A stretch of 23,009 nt of DNA, from UHGV virus genome UHGV-0387053, one strand, 5' to 3'. Position 1 is the first letter of the stretch, and every line of letters starts with the position of its first letter. This DNA is from a virus. The translations under genes and the position numbers were made by a program. The notes under the pieces were generated by a model, which saw only the letters and a program-made list of their open reading frames with translations, was not told the DNA's origin and did no database searches. Shown piece after piece: positions 4,926 to 23,009 of this stretch.

Positions 4926-5774
4926 TTACTTTTGTGTTTTTGATTTTCTTTGATAGGTGGAATTTAAACCACCATTTATATTTACTAGAGGATTGTTCAA
5001 TAATGTACTGATTTCTGGATTGTTAATTCCAGTAACGCCAAATTTCTTTACGGACTCATTAAGGTCTTGTAATGATTTTAGACCTACAAACCCATTAGCA
5101 ATTGTATTATTTGTTGCCAAAGGAATGTTTTCCTTATAGGACTCATATTCGTTTTTTAAATTTTTGTGAGCTTTTTCTAGATTTTCTAGTTTAGATGTTG
5201 TTTCATCAATAACCTTAGATAATTCTAAAATACGAGCTTGTGCTGCGCGCAGTTCTGTCTCCCTCTCTTTCAATTCAGATGTGAGTTGTCCCATTCTGTC
5301 TTTTGAAAGAATTATTTCCTCTTTCATGTCTTGAATGTTTTTTTCAGCGCCTGTTTTTACTTTTTCGTAAGTAATGTCTTTTTTAGCCAGCAATCTCTGT
5401 AGCCGTGTTTCACGTTGTATTTTTCTTGCCTTCCGGTGGTTTTCGATTGAGTCATTATTATCAAGAGGTTTTGCTTGCCATACGTTAATGATATTGTTTA
5501 CCCATGGTAATAGGCAGCAGATAGTAATTACAGATAAGCATGGATAAAACATAACAGTTTTCCATGTGCTGTTATCTGAGATGTATGAAATTTTATCTAT
5601 TATATTTGATTTGCTAAAAAACAGATAAAGAAGTGATTTCCAGTTGAAGGCGCACCAGGACATAACAAAAGCACCAAGCACAGGGTTTTTGGCTCTATGC
5701 ACGGCAGTATTGGCAGTAGATAAAAACAGCTCTTTGAACGATTCGAACATACTAATTACCTTAAAGTTTTTCAT
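4926..5774 (-). CDS. AT-rich cargo gene: hypothetical membrane protein with two predicted TM helices, a central coiled coil and an Asn-rich C-terminus
   Basis: Minus-strand ATG at 5774 with AAAGG 7 nt upstream; the longer track ORF to 6032 is rejected because it crosses the terminator and tRNA. Hydrophobic segments PVLGAFVMSWCAFNWKSLLYLFF and VMFYPCLSVITICCLLPWV; heptad-like charged region KERETELRAAQARILELSKVIDETTSKLENLEKAH. Hand counts of sample lines give about 30% GC versus about 55% in flanking phage genes. Convergent with terminase, 3 bp from its stop. Confidence 0.7.
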   Translation of the reverse strand: MKNFKVISMFESFKELFLSTANTAVHRAKNPVLGAFVMSWCAFNWKSLLYLFFSKSNIIDKISYISDNSTWKTVMFYPCLSVITICCLLPWVNNIINVWQAKPLDNNDSIENHRKARKIQRETRLQRLLAKKDITYEKVKTGAEKNIQDMKEEIILSKDRMGQLTSELKERETELRAAQARILELSKVIDETTSKLENLEKAHKNLKNEYESYKENIPLATNNTIANGFVGLKSLQDLNESVKKFGVTGINNPEISTLLNNPLVNINGGLNSTYQRKSKTQK

Positions 5775-5809
5775 GATTATACCTTTAAGGTAATTTGTGG
5801 TCATCAGGC

Positions 5810-5835
5810 AAAAAAAATGCCCGGACGAACCGGGC
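5810..5835 (-). terminator. Intrinsic terminator for minus-strand transcription, downstream of the tRNA
   Basis: Plus strand reads AAAAAAAA-tgc-CCGG-acgaa-CCGGGC, so the minus-strand RNA is GCCCGG-uucgu-CCGGGC followed by a run of eight U. Confidence 0.6.
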
Positions 5836-5998
5836 GAACTGGAAGCAATGAGTTCTGCCTTCCGTGGCTGTACGGGTTTACAGCATGAAGTCATCGCAAT
5901 GGCGTCCTGCTGTAAAAAGGGCGGTGATAGTCCTTCAAGGGAAACCATCACCGCCAAGCACCTGGAACTTCTGGCATCACGGTCCTTAGGCGTGATTC

Positions 5999-6075
5999 TG
6001 GCGTGGCATGAAGGATTCGAACCTCCGACCAACCGCTTAGAAGGCGGTTGCTCTGTCCAACTGAGCTAATGCCAC
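5999..6075 (-). tRNA. tRNA-Arg (anticodon UCU)
   Basis: Minus-strand sequence GTGGCATTAGCTCAGTTGGACAGAGCAACCGCCTTCTAAGCGGTTGGTCGGAGGTTCGAATCCTTCATGCCACGCCA folds by hand into a cloverleaf: 7-bp acceptor stem, D arm GCTC/GAGC, anticodon stem ACCGC/GCGGT with loop CTTCTAA (U33, anticodon TCT, A37), T arm GGAGG-TTCGAAT-CCTTC, discriminator G and CCA end. Confidence 0.85.
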
Positions 6076-15719: not shown

Positions 15720-18466
15720 TGCCTGTTGTTCCTACTACATCCGGACGCCAGGTGCAAAGTCGTGGTGTGCAAACCGGTGGTTTTCAGATCTTCGATGTTC
15801 CTCAAGCAGGTCAGGTGCTGGCGAATGTCGCAGATCAGTATGCGGTGGCATATGGTGAAGCCAGGCAGAAAGCGAATGTTGCTATGGCCCAGGAGGCGTT
15901 ACTGCAATTTAACCAATTTGCAGATGACCAGATTAACAACCCTGAAAGTGGGCTGATTTCTAAACAGGGTAAAAACGCTCTTGGTCAGAGTGACGCTGTT
16001 ATGAAAAATATGCAGGAAAGGGCTCAGGCATTATTAGGCTCAATTCCTGAAAGTGAGGAAAGGAATAAATTATCCTTTCAACTCCAGCAGTCTATGCAGT
16101 CTTATTACAATCAGGCACGTCGATATGAAGTTGGGCAGTTTCAGCAATTCCAAGATCAAACGTATTTGTCAGGAAATGCATTGGCTGTCACTCAGTCTGC
16201 GGGGCTATATAGCGATAACCAAGCATTTGTCGATTTAGCCAAGCAGCGATTTGAATCTATTGATCAATACGCTGATGCGCATGGGCTTCCTGATGAGTGG
16301 CGTGTTCAGCAGAAAACTCAGCTCAAGGAACAAATGGGGCAGCAAGCATGGATAGGAAATATCGCTCAAAAATACAACGAGTTTCTTCAGGTTAATGGAG
16401 AGCCAGGGGATCTTGATGGTGTGAGTCGTGCAATATCACATGGTAATTCATTGGATGCTCGTGGTTTACGTAATAATAACCCTGGTAATATTGAAGCGAG
16501 CAAATCTAACCCGTGGGAAGGTCAGATCGGTAGCGATGGACGTTTTGCAACGTTTGCTACCCCTGAGCATGGAATCCGCGCGTTGGGTAAAAATATGTTG
16601 TCTTACCAGCGTCAAGGCTATGACACCGTTAGCGAGATTGTTAATCGCTATGCTCCGGCTAGTGATGGTAATAATACTGATGCTTATATTAGGGAATTGT
16701 GTGGTGAGCTTGGTGTTGGGGAGAATGATCAGCTTGATATCTCTAACCCAAAGACACTAGCTGCTTTATGTGCTGGGATTATTAAACACGAAAATGGCAG
16801 TATGCCTTATAGCACCGAACAGCTTGAAACTGGTATCTCGGCAGCCCTTGGTCTAACTAACCTTGATTCACCTAAGCGTTATACGGGCAATGCGGCATTT
16901 GATGCTATGAGCCCTCAAATGCAAATACAGGCATTGAGGCAGGCTAATGAGCTGAGAAATCAGTACCGCCAGCAGTATGCGGACCAGCTTAGCACCGTAG
17001 TTAAAGATGCATATTCAGCCCTTGATGAAGGATTGAAACCTGAGAAGTTACCTTCTGAGGACGATTTTATCCGGGCCAATGGTCCGCGCATTGGCGCTAT
17101 GAAGTGGAAGGATATGCAGGCGCAGATACAATATGGAGGTGTCATTGGTGCCGCTAAAGACCTCACTCCAGAAGGACGACAAGACATTCTTGAACGTTTA
17201 CGTCCACAGGATCCAAACGCTCCTGGATTTGCAGCTAACCAGCAACGCTGGGAGAAAATGCAGGCCAAATTTAAAGAGATGGATAGGGAGTGGGAGATTC
17301 AGCAGGGAAGAAACAGGTTCGTGTCTTCAATGCAAAATAACTTCCCGCTGGACCCGAACGACAAAAACAATCAGGCAGCGGTAGACCGTTATTTCGCGCA
17401 GGATATCGCGCCTTCGTTTTCCATATCTGATCCGCAGAGCATCAATACACTGGTCACCGTCACAACTAAAAGCGGCATGATACCAACTCAGGTTAAAACA
17501 ATGCTTAACAGTGGAGCAACATCAAGAGATCCTGCGCTGGTTGTCCCGATGGCAAAATTCTACGGTCAGTTATTCGATAATAATCCGGCGGCAGCGGCAA
17601 CACTTGATAAAAGTACGATGGCATTTTACGGCAAGGTTTACGATTATTCCCGCGCTGGCGTGCCGGAGGATAAGGCTGTTGATATGGCTTACAGCCAGGT
17701 GTTCCAACAGGATGACCGAATGAAACAGATGCTTTCCACTGCCATGCGAGACAAAAAATATGTCGCGGCGAGGGCAACTGCTGCACAAAATAACGCCAGC
17801 AGTCTGACTTCCTTTGGTTCGTGGTCTCCGGATATTACCGATCCAGGAAAATCAAATGCGGCCTATCAGCGAGATTACCAGACAATTTACGATGCTAACT
17901 TTGTACAGACAGGTGGCGATGCAGAACAGGCTGAGAAAATGACCAATGCCATGATCAGAACCACCTGGGGAGTTTCTACGGTTAATGGCAAAGCAGAGGT
18001 TATGAAGTATGCACCTGAGGCATTGTACGGAGTAAATAATGGTGCTGGTAACTGGATACAGGGGCAGTGGGAGCAGGAAAAACGCGAGCTTAAATCAAAA
18101 TCCTTTGGCGGTCCTCGCAGTGATACGGACTTAATACTTGTTTCTGATGGCCTTACGGCAAGGGATAGGAGTTATGCTGTTATGGTTTTACAGCCTGACG
18201 CAAACGGAGCGATAGAACCGAGAAATTATATTGGAGAAAATGGTCTCCCTGTTCGTTTCAAGCCGGATCAGCTGACATCTCCAATGTACAGGCAAACCAT
18301 TCAGTTCCAGCAACAACGTGTTGATGAGGCTAGAGTGCGGAGAGAAGGCAATCCGCTGCCGCAGTTCAGCAATAAAGATGGATATACTCCTCCAGATCTG
18401 ACCAAACCATTCGGTTATGGTTCAGCCAATTACCTTCCGAGCAATATATACGCAGGGGGCAAATAA
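15719..18466 (+). CDS. Large internal virion/ejection protein, gp15-position, with a conserved-looking internal motif region
   Basis: 915 aa, coupled start TGATG. Residues about 240-330 read GLRNNNPGNIEASKSNPWEGQIGSDGRFATFATPEHGIRALGKNMLSYQRQGYDTVSEIVNRYAP, which looks like a compact enzymatic or binding domain; its function is not assigned. Confidence 0.7.
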   Translation: MPVVPTTSGRQVQSRGVQTGGFQIFDVPQAGQVLANVADQYAVAYGEARQKANVAMAQEALLQFNQFADDQINNPESGLISKQGKNALGQSDAVMKNMQERAQALLGSIPESEERNKLSFQLQQSMQSYYNQARRYEVGQFQQFQDQTYLSGNALAVTQSAGLYSDNQAFVDLAKQRFESIDQYADAHGLPDEWRVQQKTQLKEQMGQQAWIGNIAQKYNEFLQVNGEPGDLDGVSRAISHGNSLDARGLRNNNPGNIEASKSNPWEGQIGSDGRFATFATPEHGIRALGKNMLSYQRQGYDTVSEIVNRYAPASDGNNTDAYIRELCGELGVGENDQLDISNPKTLAALCAGIIKHENGSMPYSTEQLETGISAALGLTNLDSPKRYTGNAAFDAMSPQMQIQALRQANELRNQYRQQYADQLSTVVKDAYSALDEGLKPEKLPSEDDFIRANGPRIGAMKWKDMQAQIQYGGVIGAAKDLTPEGRQDILERLRPQDPNAPGFAANQQRWEKMQAKFKEMDREWEIQQGRNRFVSSMQNNFPLDPNDKNNQAAVDRYFAQDIAPSFSISDPQSINTLVTVTTKSGMIPTQVKTMLNSGATSRDPALVVPMAKFYGQLFDNNPAAAATLDKSTMAFYGKVYDYSRAGVPEDKAVDMAYSQVFQQDDRMKQMLSTAMRDKKYVAARATAAQNNASSLTSFGSWSPDITDPGKSNAAYQRDYQTIYDANFVQTGGDAEQAEKMTNAMIRTTWGVSTVNGKAEVMKYAPEALYGVNNGAGNWIQGQWEQEKRELKSKSFGGPRSDTDLILVSDGLTARDRSYAVMVLQPDANGAIEPRNYIGENGLPVRFKPDQLTSPMYRQTIQFQQQRVDEARVRREGNPLPQFSNKDGYTPPDLTKPFGYGSANYLPSNIYAGGK

Positions 18467-21400
18467 TGCCGATATATGAACAGGATCCTAAAGAGTTGCT
18501 TGGCGAGGATATTCAGCAAATAGCAGCACCTGATGACAGTAATTTCTATATGGAAACACCTTCTTTGCTTTCTGCTGTGAACCCATTTACCAGTGATCAA
18601 CGCGTTCAAAGGTCTAGACAAGCAGCATTTCGTATAGATAACACGCTGGGTAGCTTTATTGCCAGTGCTCCTTTCAGTCAGTTTGACAGGGTTGAAGGAT
18701 ATAACCCATTTGATAACGATGCAGCAGATATTAAAGGCTATGAAGATTTTGCAGATTCGTTTATCAACTCCGGTTCGCATGAAGAAACAATGGCAATTAA
18801 ACATCGAATCGATAAGCAAAGAACAGATAGAGAATATCTATCTGAAATGGGTGGTGCTGGTACTATTTCAAGCTTAGCAATGGGAATGATAGACCCGGTT
18901 AATGTGGCTGCAATGTTTATCCCTGTAGGGGCGGTAGCGCGTGGAGGAAGTATTGCTGAGACGGCAGGGCGTTTTGCCCTGGCGAATGCTGCTGGTGGGG
19001 GAGTATCAGAAGCCGCATTACAGGCCACTCAGGAAGCTCGCTCACCGATGGAGAGCGTATCGAACGTTGTTGTTGATGCTCTCGTTGGTGGGATCCTTGG
19101 TGCTGGTGCACAGCTACTTGCTGGACCTAGCGCGCGCGAGGCAGTGGTTAACTCAGTAGGTAATCATTTGCGAGGTATGGATTCTCCTCAAAGCATTGGT
19201 GCAGCTCAGGTTTTCAATACCACACTCGATCAGGAACAGCTCGCTGGACTTGGACTTGCTAACAAAACGTTGAGTGTCACTCCTGCTGGCCGCTTGGCTC
19301 AATCACCATCTCTTGTCTCCCGTCAGATTAACCAGCAGCTTGCCGAAAATAACTATTTCTTCGCCAAAAATGATGAGGGGTTGGCTACGTTTACGGCAGT
19401 CGAGACTAAGATTAAGCAATACGACGCCATGCTTTATAAGCAGATGGAAGCCACTCGTGATGCTTACCAGCAGTACAGCAAATCTGTTAGCGCCCGCGGC
19501 GTGAAGAGGATGAACTTTATTGATTTCAATGAAGCTGTTGGCATGGCTATGCGCCGTGGTGATCAGAGTGATATTCCTGAGGTTTCACAAGCAGCCGCCA
19601 GAATCCGCCCCATTTTCGAGACCACAAAAGCCCGTATGCAGGAACTGGGGATCCTTCCTGAGGATATCGATGTCGTGACGGCGAAAAGTTATCTTCCCCG
19701 CATTTATAAGTTCGATAAGATACTTTCCGACCGCACTGAATTCAGAGGGCGAATTGCCAACTGGATACAAGGGATTAGTGCCAAAGGTGCTGACAAAGCA
19801 GGTCAGCGAATTGAAAGGATAAATTCATTGCTAAAAACTGCAGAGGAATCGGCACCGCGCGCTGATGCTCTCGCTAGTGAAATCGCTGAAGCGGAGAAAT
19901 GGTCTGGTAAAAAAATTCTACTCATGGAAGAACTGGATAAACGAAATAAGCTTATATCTCAGGAGACTGACACACAGGCGCGTCTTACAAGAATAGAAAA
20001 AGAGTTGGCCGAGACTTCATCAGAAAAACTTCAGGCAAGAATGATGAAAGAAAGCTCTGACCTTAAAACACGCCTTGATGATATAGCGCAGGCAAAGAGT
20101 GAGCTTCCTGTCTATCAGCGCCATATGGAGTTGCTGGATAATCCACGGAAATATCGTTCTGAGCTTCGCCGACTGCAAAAACGGGCAAATTCAACCACAA
20201 GGCTGAATGCAAGCCGCGAACGAGCACTGAAGCAGATGGAGCCTCTATCCCGAGAGGAAGCAGAGGACGCTGCTGACGAGATCGTGAATAAAATAATAGG
20301 CGCACCTTCCGGGCTTGTACCAGCCGATATTATCCCAGAGAGACTCGTTGGTCGGGCTGGTTTCACTAAAAGCAGAACGCTGCTTATTCCTGATGAGCGT
20401 ATAGAAGATTTTCTTGAATCAGATGTTAACTACATCATGGAAAGTTATCTCCGGCAGGTGGCACCAGAAATTGAGCTGACTGCGCAGTTTGGCCGTAAAG
20501 ATATGGGGGAGCAAATCCGTCAGGTTAGTGAGGAATATACCCGGCTAATAAAAGAGGCTAAAACACCTAAACGACGTGCAGTTCTTGAGAAGCAACGGGA
20601 GGCTGATATTAGGGATATTACGGCTATGCGTGATCGACTGCTTGGTACTTACGGTGCACCTCAAGATCCACGCAGTTTCTTTGTTCGTGCCGGGCGAGTT
20701 GCTAGGAATATTAACTTCCTCCGTTTGCTTGGTGGAATGACTGTCTCCGCTGCAACTGATCTGATGCGACCGATGATGCAGCATGGCCTGAGAAAATCTC
20801 TCGGACCAATGGTAAGCATGCTTAAAAATATGGACTCAGTGAAAATTGCAACCAGGGATTTGCGAGAAATGGCCGTTGGGCTTGATTATGTCCTGTCTAC
20901 GCGTACAAAGGCTATAGCGGATCTTACTGACCCCTATAGCCGGAGAAGCGCCGCTGAGCGAGGTCTGAACTGGATGACGCAGAAATTCGGTAACTGGACG
21001 CTGATGAATCAGTGGAACAGCGCACTTAAATCATGGTCCGGGATGATAGTGCAGTCGAGGATACTTGACGCGGCTCGCCAAGTTTCTGCTGGTGGCACGC
21101 TCTCCAAAAGTGAAATGCGGAAGATGGCACAGGTCGGCATCAATGAAGATGTTCTGCGCCGAATCGGGGAGCAATTCGGGAAGCACGGAGAGGATATGGA
21201 CGGGCTGTTAACCGGGCATAGTCATCTGTGGGATGACCGTTTCGCTAGAGAGATTTTCCAGTCTGCAGTGCTGAAAGATGTAGACTCAGTGATTGTAACG
21301 CCTGGCGTAGGTGATACACCGCTGTTTTTTAGTAAAGAAGGCTGGAAGATGATCACGCAGTTCAAAACGTTTATCTTCGCACAGCATAACAGGGTGCTAG

Positions 21401-21855
21401 TATCTGGTATCCAGCAGGGCGATGCTGCATTCTATCTTGGTGCGCTTGGCACGATTGCGCTTGGCTCAATGGTCTATATGATGAAACAGAAGTTAAGCGG
21501 TCGCGATATCGACTACAGCTGGAATAACCTTGTGAAAGAGGGGATCGACCGGGGCGGAATGCTTGGCTGGCTCTCTGAGCCGCTGAATACCGTTGAGAAC
21601 ATAAGCGGCGGTAGGTTTGGTCTTGGCGCGATGTTTGGTGCGCCTCCGGTATCAAGGTTTCAGAGTCGTAATGCTATTGGTGCTTTACTTGGTCCTACCT
21701 TTGATCTTGGCGGTGATGCCGCGACGGTTGCGAATGGTGTACTTAACGGAGAATTTGACAGCCAGCAAACCCACGCGGTCCGTAAAATGCTACCTTTTCA
21801 GAACCTGTGGGCGATATCACCGTTACTAAATAAAGTTGAAGAGCAGATGAAATAG
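18466..21855 (+). CDS. Largest internal virion/ejection protein, gp16-position
   Basis: 1129 aa, coupled start TAATG; long helical/coiled-coil regions; last gene of the coupled chain. No lytic transglycosylase motif recognised. Confidence 0.7.
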   Translation: MPIYEQDPKELLGEDIQQIAAPDDSNFYMETPSLLSAVNPFTSDQRVQRSRQAAFRIDNTLGSFIASAPFSQFDRVEGYNPFDNDAADIKGYEDFADSFINSGSHEETMAIKHRIDKQRTDREYLSEMGGAGTISSLAMGMIDPVNVAAMFIPVGAVARGGSIAETAGRFALANAAGGGVSEAALQATQEARSPMESVSNVVVDALVGGILGAGAQLLAGPSAREAVVNSVGNHLRGMDSPQSIGAAQVFNTTLDQEQLAGLGLANKTLSVTPAGRLAQSPSLVSRQINQQLAENNYFFAKNDEGLATFTAVETKIKQYDAMLYKQMEATRDAYQQYSKSVSARGVKRMNFIDFNEAVGMAMRRGDQSDIPEVSQAAARIRPIFETTKARMQELGILPEDIDVVTAKSYLPRIYKFDKILSDRTEFRGRIANWIQGISAKGADKAGQRIERINSLLKTAEESAPRADALASEIAEAEKWSGKKILLMEELDKRNKLISQETDTQARLTRIEKELAETSSEKLQARMMKESSDLKTRLDDIAQAKSELPVYQRHMELLDNPRKYRSELRRLQKRANSTTRLNASRERALKQMEPLSREEAEDAADEIVNKIIGAPSGLVPADIIPERLVGRAGFTKSRTLLIPDERIEDFLESDVNYIMESYLRQVAPEIELTAQFGRKDMGEQIRQVSEEYTRLIKEAKTPKRRAVLEKQREADIRDITAMRDRLLGTYGAPQDPRSFFVRAGRVARNINFLRLLGGMTVSAATDLMRPMMQHGLRKSLGPMVSMLKNMDSVKIATRDLREMAVGLDYVLSTRTKAIADLTDPYSRRSAAERGLNWMTQKFGNWTLMNQWNSALKSWSGMIVQSRILDAARQVSAGGTLSKSEMRKMAQVGINEDVLRRIGEQFGKHGEDMDGLLTGHSHLWDDRFAREIFQSAVLKDVDSVIVTPGVGDTPLFFSKEGWKMITQFKTFIFAQHNRVLVSGIQQGDAAFYLGALGTIALGSMVYMMKQKLSGRDIDYSWNNLVKEGIDRGGMLGWLSEPLNTVENISGGRFGLGAMFGAPPVSRFQSRNAIGALLGPTFDLGGDAATVANGVLNGEFDSQQTHAVRKMLPFQNLWAISPLLNKVEEQMK

Positions 21856-22296
21856 CTATTCACAATTAGTGATGGCGTATGTATCAAATATATTGCCATC
21901 ACTAAATACATACCTATATTCAATCTCTCCGCCAAGGTGAATAAATGCTTTCATTTGCCTGTTGGAGCAAATGCTCGATTTTGAATAATTTCGCATTACA
22001 CTCTTTAATTTATTTTCTAAGGTTACATCACCGTTATAAACTTTTGATAAATAGCTGTTGTTGTAATTAAGATGCGCTACAACTAAAAGTTTGTTTAGTA
22101 TTGCATTTATTGAAACAATAGACATATTATCATTCAATTTTATGGGAAGTGACTTTCCTGCTTCTGATGCAATTTTGTTTGCATGTGCACACATATCCTC
22201 ATTTATTAAATTCTTAAAACATATGTCGTTTGCAAACGAAAAAATTGGTAGGATAAACAAAACGGTAGCTGTAATAGCGTGCATCGGCTTAATCAT
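21856..22296 (-). CDS. AT-rich cargo gene: secreted/periplasmic Cys-containing protein
   Basis: Minus-strand ORF; N-terminus MIKPMHAITATVLFILPIFSFA is signal-peptide-like (an alternative start 12 nt downstream is possible); cysteines spread through the mature part; visibly AT-rich; abuts the gp16-like stop. Confidence 0.6.
   Translation of the reverse strand: MIKPMHAITATVLFILPIFSFANDICFKNLINEDMCAHANKIASEAGKSLPIKLNDNMSIVSINAILNKLLVVAHLNYNNSYLSKVYNGDVTLENKLKSVMRNYSKSSICSNRQMKAFIHLGGEIEYRYVFSDGNIFDTYAITNCE
21866..21905. repeat. 11-bp perfect inverted repeat with 18-nt spacer (TTAGTGATGGC ... GCCATCACTAA)
   Basis: Seen in sequence 11 nt after the gp16-like stop, inside the 3' end of the convergent minus-strand gene. 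Operator-like or hairpin; no U-tract. Confidence 0.4.
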
Positions 22297-22308
22297 TAGG
22301 TGACCTTT

Positions 22309-22758
22309 ATGTTCAAGAAGATGATCAACAGATTAATCGGTGGTAAGGAGGTTAGCAATAAAATTCAACCTCTTATCTTTAAGGATAACTTTTCAGCTTT
22401 TGAGTATGCGTGTAAGTATCTTGACACAAGCCTTTCAGCCAATAAACCAATGCCAGCCATCATCATACCTGGTCCAAGTGGGGAACAGCCAGTTTTGCTA
22501 GATTCTGGAAGACAAAGGGCAATGCTGAAGGTGTGCTCAGCTGATGGTGGATTTTTTGTTATTGCCGATTCATCTTACAGCAAAGGACCAAAGCTGAGGA
22601 TTGGTGATCTTGTTGCTTGGTTGCCTGTGAGTTATGCCGAAGAATTAACGGATAAAATAGAAGATCCTCGCTCCGCTATGGTTGGCTTTATATTGGGAAC
22701 CATTCATCCTGAACTAACATCTACTGGCTGGAAGGGTAAAGAAAGATTTCGCAAGTAG
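22309..22758 (+). CDS. Hypothetical cytoplasmic protein, divergent from the secreted-protein gene
   Basis: ATG 22309 after AGGTGA; 149 aa; AT-rich 5' part, more GC-rich 3' part; stop TAG 22756-22758 is followed directly by the palindrome and a terminator. Confidence 0.55.
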   Translation: MFKKMINRLIGGKEVSNKIQPLIFKDNFSAFEYACKYLDTSLSANKPMPAIIIPGPSGEQPVLLDSGRQRAMLKVCSADGGFFVIADSSYSKGPKLRIGDLVAWLPVSYAEELTDKIEDPRSAMVGFILGTIHPELTSTGWKGKERFRK

Positions 22759-22759
22759 C

Positions 22760-22771
22760 GTGACATGTCAC
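22760..22771. promoter_or_regulatory. 12-bp perfect palindrome GTGACATGTCAC (copy 2)
   Basis: Identical to the 2738-2749 copy; again starts within 2 nt of a stop codon and precedes a hairpin/T-tract. Confidence 0.5.
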
Positions 22772-22796
22772 AGGCCGCTTTCGCGGCCTTGTTTTT
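22772..22796 (+). terminator. Intrinsic terminator (AGGCCGC-tttc-GCGGCCT followed by TGTTTTT)
   Basis: 7-bp GC-rich stem, 4-nt loop and T-tract, seen in sequence immediately after the 22309-22758 gene. Confidence 0.7.
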
Positions 22797-22956
22797 AACG
22801 AATGCCACCGCCACCCGGGCGGGAATCCGCAGAACGCCCACCGCAGCGGGAGCCGTCAGCAGCAGTGTCGCTGTCGTGCTGACAACGACCGGCAAAGGCC
22901 TGAGTTGAAGCTACCAGAGACAACAAAACGAACAGTGCAGCAAATGCTTTTTTCAT
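22795..22956 (-). CDS. Possible small secreted peptide (about 53 aa), GC-rich; low confidence
   Basis: Minus-strand ATG at 22956 giving MKKAFAALFVLLSLVASTQAFAG (signal-peptide-like) then a Gly/Arg/Ser/Asp-rich tail with two Cys. Weak RBS; could be non-coding. Confidence 0.3.
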   Translation of the reverse strand: MKKAFAALFVLLSLVASTQAFAGRCQHDSDTAADGSRCGGRSADSRPGGGGIR

Positions 22957-23009
22957 TGTGAAATTTCCATCTATAAGCCACCTCAATGTGGCGTCAATGA
23001 GTGTAGCAC

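Follow-up and report, generated by a model that had tools for sequence, protein, structure and literature searches.

Few proteins are known to exclude superinfecting phages at the stage of DNA entry, and fewer mechanisms are understood. Spackle (Sp) of phage T4 is a small soluble periplasmic protein; it blocks superinfection by binding the gp5 lysozyme of the incoming phage's penetration machinery. SieA of phage P22 is encoded by the prophage, which expresses it in lysogens, and its target is the ejection-protein conduit; it spans the inner membrane several times and exposes an FxRYPxEAxxFNK motif to the cytoplasm (PMC10883804). In the literature, SieA escape mutants map to the ejection proteins gp16 and gp20; the target was mapped only in 2024. 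The locus described here lies in UHGV-0387053, a stretch of viral DNA of 23,009 nucleotides (the whole of which is called the window) that represents a temperate prophage of E. coli. It consists of two genes: A, for an exported periplasmic protein of 146 residues, and B, for a cytoplasmic protein of 149 residues. Judged by its sequence and its position, A is most likely a prophage gene for exclusion, or an accessory ('moron') gene, that occupies the locus equivalent to sieA but codes for another protein architecture and would do a known job in a new way.

Gene A (21856..22296, minus strand) is convergent with EJ3 (18466..21855, plus strand), the open reading frame (ORF) for the last ejection (internal virion) protein. 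EJ3 encodes 1129 residues, is gp16-like in position and matches phrog_342 ('internal virion protein'). Its TAG stop codon occupies 21853-21855 and the stop codon of A begins at the very next base, 21856. Gene B lies at 22309..22758 on the plus strand. An earlier reading made from the sequence alone (the sequence-only reading) had described a gp16-like stop codon abutting a minus-strand gene, and an AT-rich divergent pair coding for a signal-peptide protein with cysteines and a cytoplasmic protein. Both points are borne out; G+C content is 31.7% in A and 41.8% in B, compared with 48.2% in the ejection gene and 48.8% in the window. The same reading was right about the length of B (about 150 residues) and the closeness of the two start codons, but the gap between them is 12 bp (22297-22308) and not 13. 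RefSeq has both genes at the same coordinates in a prophage identical to this one (WP_000595048.1 and WP_000473936.1).

The N-terminus of A, MIKPMHAITATVLFILPIFSFA followed by NDIC, is a Sec signal of the signal-peptidase-I type (residues 1-22, 22231-22296). It has K3 and a hydrophobic core, then S20-F21-A22 directly before N23. The four cysteines of the protein (C26, C36, C110 and C145) are invariant across 13 diverged homologues and likely form two disulfides. The ratio of nonsynonymous to synonymous substitution rates (dN/dS) is 0.19-0.21 for A, 0.08-0.13 for B and 0.03-0.07 for EJ3; all three genes are under purifying selection, which is 3-6 times looser on A than on EJ3. Homologues of A and B in other genera reach down to ~27-30% identity. 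Taken with the confident predicted folds of both proteins, these results establish the two ORFs as real genes and not chance reading frames, which disposes of the alternative that the AT-rich block is non-coding. Searches of Pfam, NCBIfam, PADLOC and PDB sequences give nothing above threshold for either protein; PHROGs gives only unnamed families. In isolated phage genomes, tblastn finds no match to A and one distant match to B. Plasmids yield no match, and an Rfam scan of 21500-23009 yields no RNA family.

Gene order links A to sieA. In P22 the order is gene 16 (+), sieA (-), orf59a (-), mnt (-), arc (+), ant (+) and gene 9. Klebsiella prophages L009-11, whose A and B are 74% and 80% identical to those of the window, have the order EJ3 (+), A (-), an mnt-like ribbon-helix-helix gene (-), arc (+), ant (+) and B (+). 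Downstream of mnt, A begins after 11 bp in the Klebsiella prophages; across L009 and L049 the distance is 11-15 bp. L049 and L053 keep the Klebsiella-type order at only 27% identity in A and 35% in B. L067 has an mnt gene (Pfam Repressor_Mnt match), a 212-residue gene and a gene for an A fusion, all convergent with EJ3. Its A gene lies inside the mnt operon, and its arc and ant are on the plus strand as in the Klebsiella prophages. The immI module (mnt, arc and ant) is absent from the window, from Cedecea and from several IMG/VR prophages; there A, or a second exported family termed A', stands head to head with B. By this arrangement A takes the position of sieA and, where immI is present, belongs to the mnt transcription unit.

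The likeness to SieA is one of position: both genes follow the last ejection gene, are convergent with it, lie on the mnt side of immI and stand upstream of the tailspike gene. A was rejected as a SieA homologue, since BLASTP gives an E value above 10. In architecture, too, the two differ: SieA is polytopic and sits in the inner membrane, whereas A, with one cleavable signal and a soluble fold, is a soluble protein of the periplasm. The ejection proteins differ as well; P22 has gp7, gp20 and gp16, while the phage that carries A has T7-type gp14/15/16-like proteins. T4 Spackle, as a binder of incoming penetration machinery, shares the logic proposed for A. However, Spackle, T4 Imm, T5 Llp and HK97 gp15 all belong to other phage types and have other targets.

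Gene fusions provide the strongest case that the A-family proteins of these prophages work on the ejection conduit. Two diverged members of the family share an architecture of signal peptide, A domain, Pro-rich linker, a copy of the N-terminal ~100 residues of EJ3, and a transmembrane helix. The Morganella prophage fusion P0030/P0031 (290 residues; CDK68210.1; L029 5980-6852) is found on 12 contigs or more, and the second member is P0073 (287 residues; L067 3330-4193). Both fusion genes occupy the same slot as A. In BLASTP their extensions match EJ3 proteins with E values of 9e-17 and 2e-16, and the module GYNPF...GYE.F...SP.ET..IK..ID is present; in the N-terminal alignment, the first ~105 residues of EJ3 hold the conserved motif GYNPF..GYE.F..F..S.S..ET..IK..ID. 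Between themselves the extensions share no more than 35% identity, so the fusion architecture is either ancient or has originated repeatedly.

In the Morganella fusion, the extension comes closer to the EJ3 N-terminus of the sister phage L065 (50% identity) than to that of its own prophage (36%); with the L065 gene it shares 82% DNA identity over the first 33 codons. The EJ3 proteins of L029 (6853-9801) and L065 (2995-5943) are 95% identical overall, but their N-terminal ~60 residues are clearly different. An exported, anchored copy of a competitor's EJ3 N-terminus could meet ejection proteins only in the envelope, and these would be the proteins of an incoming phage. Between L029 and L065, the allelic mosaicism of EJ3 is limited to the region mimicked by the fusion proteins. 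A short C-terminal tail in Providencia-type A proteins resembles the ejection-protein motif by eye; it was rejected as a further case, being too short and without a BLAST match.

The predicted fold of A is, with confidence, AspS/PA3611-like, that is, secretion-pilotin-like, and the mature domain holds the four conserved cysteines. The model has the alpha/beta topology of AspS (a helix, three strands, two helices and two strands, with a helix-binding pocket). In common with PA3611, it combines the AspS-like fold with a lipobox-free signal peptide and has an additional helix behind strand 3; what it lacks is the C-terminal helix alpha4 of AspS. Pilotins use the hydrophobic pocket of this scaffold to grip the secretin by its amphipathic C-terminal helix (PMC3542185, PMC6532946).

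At the sequence level there is little to connect A with pilotins. It does not match PF16549 (T2SSS_2) even at E<=1, while the control, E. coli YghG, scores 1.3e-16; hhalign against the pilotin family gives a probability of 1-2%, and a profile search of PDB sequences yields no pilotin. A has no lipobox: its signal ends in FSFA before NDIC, which places the first cysteine at +4. Its homologues have A-x-x-(x)-C without L-[AS]-[GA]-C; YghG, by contrast, has LLSGC. A collinear alignment of A and YghG places C110 and C145 on the YghG disulfide cysteines and shows LPIK in both proteins, but it is not statistically significant. Neither hhalign nor PF16549 could establish homology to AspS at the sequence level. 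A Foldseek comparison of the A model with the BFVD viral predicted structures gives no hit at E<=1e-3. On the model, A appears to be built on an AspS/PA3611-type scaffold, yet it falls outside the pilotin family as defined. It differs from the AspS, GspS-beta and EpsS pilotins (PF16549) in having no lipobox and hence no Lol targeting, no Pfam match and no alpha4. AspS-type pilotins are encoded in secretion operons, A by a prophage; the A homologues lie in the prophage ejection/immI region in all enterobacterial loci examined, with no secretin gene setting. PA3611 of Pseudomonas aeruginosa (PDB 3NPD) is chromosomal, unlike A, and its own secretin binding is only proposed.

The best-supported of the readings is superinfection exclusion: A would act in the periplasm against the ejection conduit of an incoming phage. 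It is put forward tentatively, as an explanation that may well be right but that falls a little short of being probable. Of the functions suggested in the sequence-only reading, the injection-blocking exclusion factor is the one that survives; its support is circumstantial and consists of the sieA-equivalent position, the place of A behind mnt in relatives, the other exported occupants of the site and the two fusions to the EJ3 N-terminus. A would be made in the lysogen, exported by Sec and folded in the periplasm, where it would probably form disulfides. It would then bind a helical element of the ejection proteins of an incoming related podophage, most likely near the N-terminal module of the gp16-like EJ3. 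Such binding would block assembly of the trans-envelope conduit and DNA entry would fail. Exclusion would in this case be the work of a soluble periplasmic binder instead of an inner-membrane protein such as SieA.

Several observations weigh against an exclusion function. No PADLOC defence model was matched. The family is broad: in an exhaustive profile search, A has 306 representative relatives, most of which are stand-alone proteins of ~145 residues, and some are fused to Sel1, TPR, AMIN or LprI domains. Chromosomal homologues are found in Bradyrhizobium (L063 4923-5363), Mesorhizobium (L055 944-1645) and Methylocapsa (L062 4782-5363); these alpha-proteobacterial proteins have the FVRLGGQVQY motif and the same arrangement of four cysteines, and the genes around them are uninformative. 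The A domain is therefore not restricted to phages. Given the breadth of the family, the chromosomal copies and the domain fusions, it is a general periplasmic module, and a role related to phages may be confined to a subset. The A protein of the window does not itself carry an ejection-protein-like extension, so for this member the evidence from the fusions is indirect. Adjacency to ejection genes could merely reflect permissive insertion at operon ends. Finally, A has no consensus sigma-70 promoter, and H-NS may silence an AT-rich block such as A-B.

The region is best explained as an exchangeable accessory slot at the end of the virion/ejection operon, holding two independent genes and corresponding in position to the sieA-immI region of P22. 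The A-B cassette is found in 14 of 5,426 complete E. coli genomes, where it is always intact, single-copy and chromosomal and is 98.8-100% identical. Homology to sister phages ends at the EJ3 stop codon and restarts at the B stop codon. Directly after the latter there is a perfect 12-bp palindrome, GTGACATGTCAC (22760-22771), followed by a terminator hairpin on the plus strand, AGGCCGC-TTTC-GCGGCCT with a T-run (22772-22796), which was found by a terminator scan and is annotated as a terminator in phiV10. This boundary is conserved in phiV10, TL-2011b and L014. Palindrome and terminator are a backbone boundary and form the right-hand edge of the exchangeable cassette; the terminator after B belongs to the backbone and not to the cassette. 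The palindrome has a variant form in Cedecea and is absent from EC.W1-9; it may mark a limit of recombination or serve as a binding site for a protein.

All slot occupants that adjoin the ejection gene are envelope proteins. In EC.W1-9 (L001 6158-7009, plus strand) and IHE3034, the slot holds a Cys-rich signal-peptide protein of 283 residues (phrog_6118, no Pfam family), which has a homologue in the Morganella-type phage L065 (6120-6302). TL-2011b has a membrane-anchored protein of 188 residues together with arc and ant, and phiV10 has a protein of 46 residues with two transmembrane helices. The A' family (L018, L041 and L050) has the signal peptide of A and a different mature part; homology of A' to A is not shown beyond the common signal peptide. 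A resembles the morons of lambdoid phages in being an extra gene, present or absent among near-identical genomes, with atypical base composition and a place at an operon end beside a terminator. Unlike those morons, A and B must share overlapping 5' regions, and no dedicated promoter and terminator could be assigned to each gene.

The element belongs with the epsilon15/phiV10-like temperate prophages, and a T7-like phage is ruled out. The flanks of the locus match the epsilon15/phiV10-like podophages EC.W1-9, TL-2011b and phiV10; 533 of the 5,426 complete E. coli genomes match part of a 1,310-bp query through their prophages. A twin of the prophage in a complete genome has genes for capsid, connector, tail, a core protein of the T7 gp14 family and two large internal proteins upstream of the locus. 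Downstream it has a 53-residue exported peptide, a YafO-like protein, a BRO-N protein and the tailspike (endosialidase), then the lysis genes. The tailspike gene lies ~2.3 kb past the window end, behind a block of minus-strand accessory genes. The layout is alike in phiV10, TL-2011b and P22, with the tailspike gene further downstream. The T7-based expectation of a tail-fibre gene directly after the gp16-like gene is therefore inapplicable here; looking for the gene further downstream, as the sequence-only reading proposed, does locate it.

The start codons of A and B are separated by the spacer TAGGTGACCTTT (22297..22308), in which the two ribosome-binding sites stand back to back: AAGGT, read on the minus strand, serves A, and AGGTG serves B. 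Head-to-head starts with a gap of 12-24 bp recur in relatives L007, L018, L041, L043, L048 and L050. With start codons 12 bp apart there is, as had been pointed out from the sequence, no room for ordinary divergent promoters; each promoter must lie within the other gene, and each 5' leader would run antisense to the other. A consensus promoter scan finds no promoter on the needed strands, so promoters can be proposed by eye only. A weak candidate for B, TTGCAA-16 bp-GATAAA (22230..22257, plus strand), lies inside the signal-peptide codons of A; its -35 hexamer is conserved in L018, L041 and L043. A weak candidate for A, TTGCTA-17 bp-TAATCT (22330..22358, minus strand), lies inside codons 8-17 of B and is conserved in the same three relatives; Cedecea L007 has a similar TTGCCA-17-TATTCT. 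If these candidates are used, the A and B leaders would be complementary over ~60 nt, at 22264-22323. The LF82 'Gally' transcriptome was discarded as a source of expression evidence; Gally is a P22-like prophage and is uninformative on A and B.

The start of B is the ATG annotated by RefSeq; an in-frame GTG upstream, at 22300, is a possible alternative. B matches phrog_9944. Its model (pLDDT 88.5) has a basic disordered N-terminus of ~20 residues, one helix and a beta-barrel like the oligonucleotide/oligosaccharide-binding (OB) fold, and structure comparison gives OB-fold hits with Z <=7.2. From the model, B is best read as an OB-fold accessory protein. In relatives with immI, it follows ant behind a terminator-like hairpin. 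B is always on the late-operon strand ahead of the backbone terminator, and late read-through would therefore be expected to transcribe it. Distant homologues with one or two N-terminal transmembrane helices (L013 5896-6387; L051 5719-6420; L052 5686-6438) occur in unrelated temperate phages, including Acinetobacter phage MD-2021a. They sit directly downstream of cI-type repressors, and in these relatives the B domain is co-transcribed with the repressor. A place directly behind a cI-type repressor is typical of exclusion or abortive-infection genes expressed in lysogens. A further distant homologue, on a metagenomic contig, has a KAP NTPase and a type ISP restriction enzyme as neighbours. That B serves defence or exclusion at the cytoplasmic face is only a guess.

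Other roles for A have to be set against exclusion. A could be a cell-wall hydrolase inhibitor or general envelope protector in the periplasm, acting against host lysozyme, competitor toxins or the lytic transglycosylase that the ejection proteins of an incoming phage carry. Known periplasmic lysozyme inhibitors are small, exported and disulfide-bonded, and A is small, exported and likely disulfide-bonded. Among 34 multi-domain relatives, two carry an LprI lysozyme-inhibitor domain and one an AMIN domain; in several relatives an SLT domain is present in the neighbouring ejection protein. This role is nevertheless considered improbable. Distinctly improbable, too, is a role in lysogenic conversion, in which A would imitate a pilotin, though soluble and without a lipid anchor; by binding the S-domain helix of a type II or pilus secretin it would stabilise or divert that secretin and so alter secretion or envelope properties of the lysogen. 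The fold would suit such a function, but the missing lipobox and alpha4 and the negative PF16549 and hhalign results speak against it. Moreover, A homologues are found in Klebsiella prophages, while the type II system of Klebsiella oxytoca uses the unrelated PulS class of pilotin (PMC3542185, PMC6532946), and secretin binding leaves the fusions to the ejection-protein N-terminus unexplained.

The two remaining explanations concern the pair and the block as a whole. The AT-rich block might be silent or decaying cargo, with real ORFs that are unexpressed here through loss of the immI promoters of relatives, in which A follows mnt and B follows ant. Low G+C content and the empty consensus scan fit this explanation. 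However, the head-to-head form is shared by different genera, in which ORFs and ribosome-binding sites are intact and selection is purifying, and the near-identical cassette is intact in every complete genome that has it; the chance that the block is silent is considered slim. A single two-gene module of A and B (toxin/immunity, effector/chaperone or two-compartment defence) is very unlikely. In its favour, none of the 14 complete E. coli genomes that carry the cassette has a broken pair, and the head-to-head pair recurs in several diverged lineages, namely E. coli, Cedecea L007, L043 and L048 (A 30-78%, B 32-74% identity). Against it, A is found without B in Providencia L004-6 and in L029-L033; B is found without A in phiV10-like L014/15 and L042, after ant in L044-47, and outside the phage group in L013, L016, L051 and L052. 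In Klebsiella and L049 the two genes are separated by the 1.7-kb immI module. They are divergent, and hence not an operon, and their products belong to different compartments. No toxin, antitoxin or defence family is matched in Pfam, NCBIfam or PADLOC (Ntox35, at E 0.056, is below the cut-off). The occurrence of each gene alone and the interposed immI rule out an obligate toxin/immunity pair, and the toxin/immunity or secreted-effector module offered by the sequence-only reading is not upheld.

The exclusion reading can be extended to the locus as a whole, in a form that is unlikely to hold in every part. The A-family proteins of epsilon15-like prophages would be an unrecognised class of soluble periplasmic excluders, in which a pilotin-type helix clamp captures the N-terminal module of the incoming gp16-like protein. 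The fused variants would be anchored decoys that mimic a competitor's allele, B a partner at the cytoplasmic face, and the 12-bp head-to-head starts, whose leaders are antisense to one another, a switch between lysogenic expression of A and late expression of B.

Two further genes of the window may be mentioned. M53 (22795..22956, minus strand) encodes a 53-residue signal-peptide protein with two cysteines and a Gly/Arg-rich tail; it belongs to the minus-strand accessory block and matches phrog_14503 ('membrane associated protein, moron'). Its counterpart in TL-2011b is annotated as transmembrane-anchored. M53 is kept downstream of the slot in many relatives; E. coli MS20659 (L066) has a DUF4760 gene instead. 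At 4926-6032, a second AT-rich ORF (38% G+C, 368 residues, minus strand) breaks the plus-strand block of head genes. It matches phrog_4780 (unknown function) and no Pfam family, and the LmuB and JetC defence models score only <21 bits; it may be another moron.

If the exclusion reading is true, A would represent a soluble, periplasmic type of excluder for podophages whose ejection proteins are of the T7 type. It would also provide the first biological role of the PA3611/AspS-like fold beyond secretin piloting, and the fused decoy domain would give a handle on the part of gp16-like proteins that is critical for the trans-envelope conduit. The locus also marks the ejection operon's end, in this group of prophages, as a hotspot of envelope-acting genes; this is relevant to predicting the failure of phage therapy in K1/extraintestinal pathogenic (ExPEC) E. 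coli, Klebsiella and the Morganella/Providencia group.

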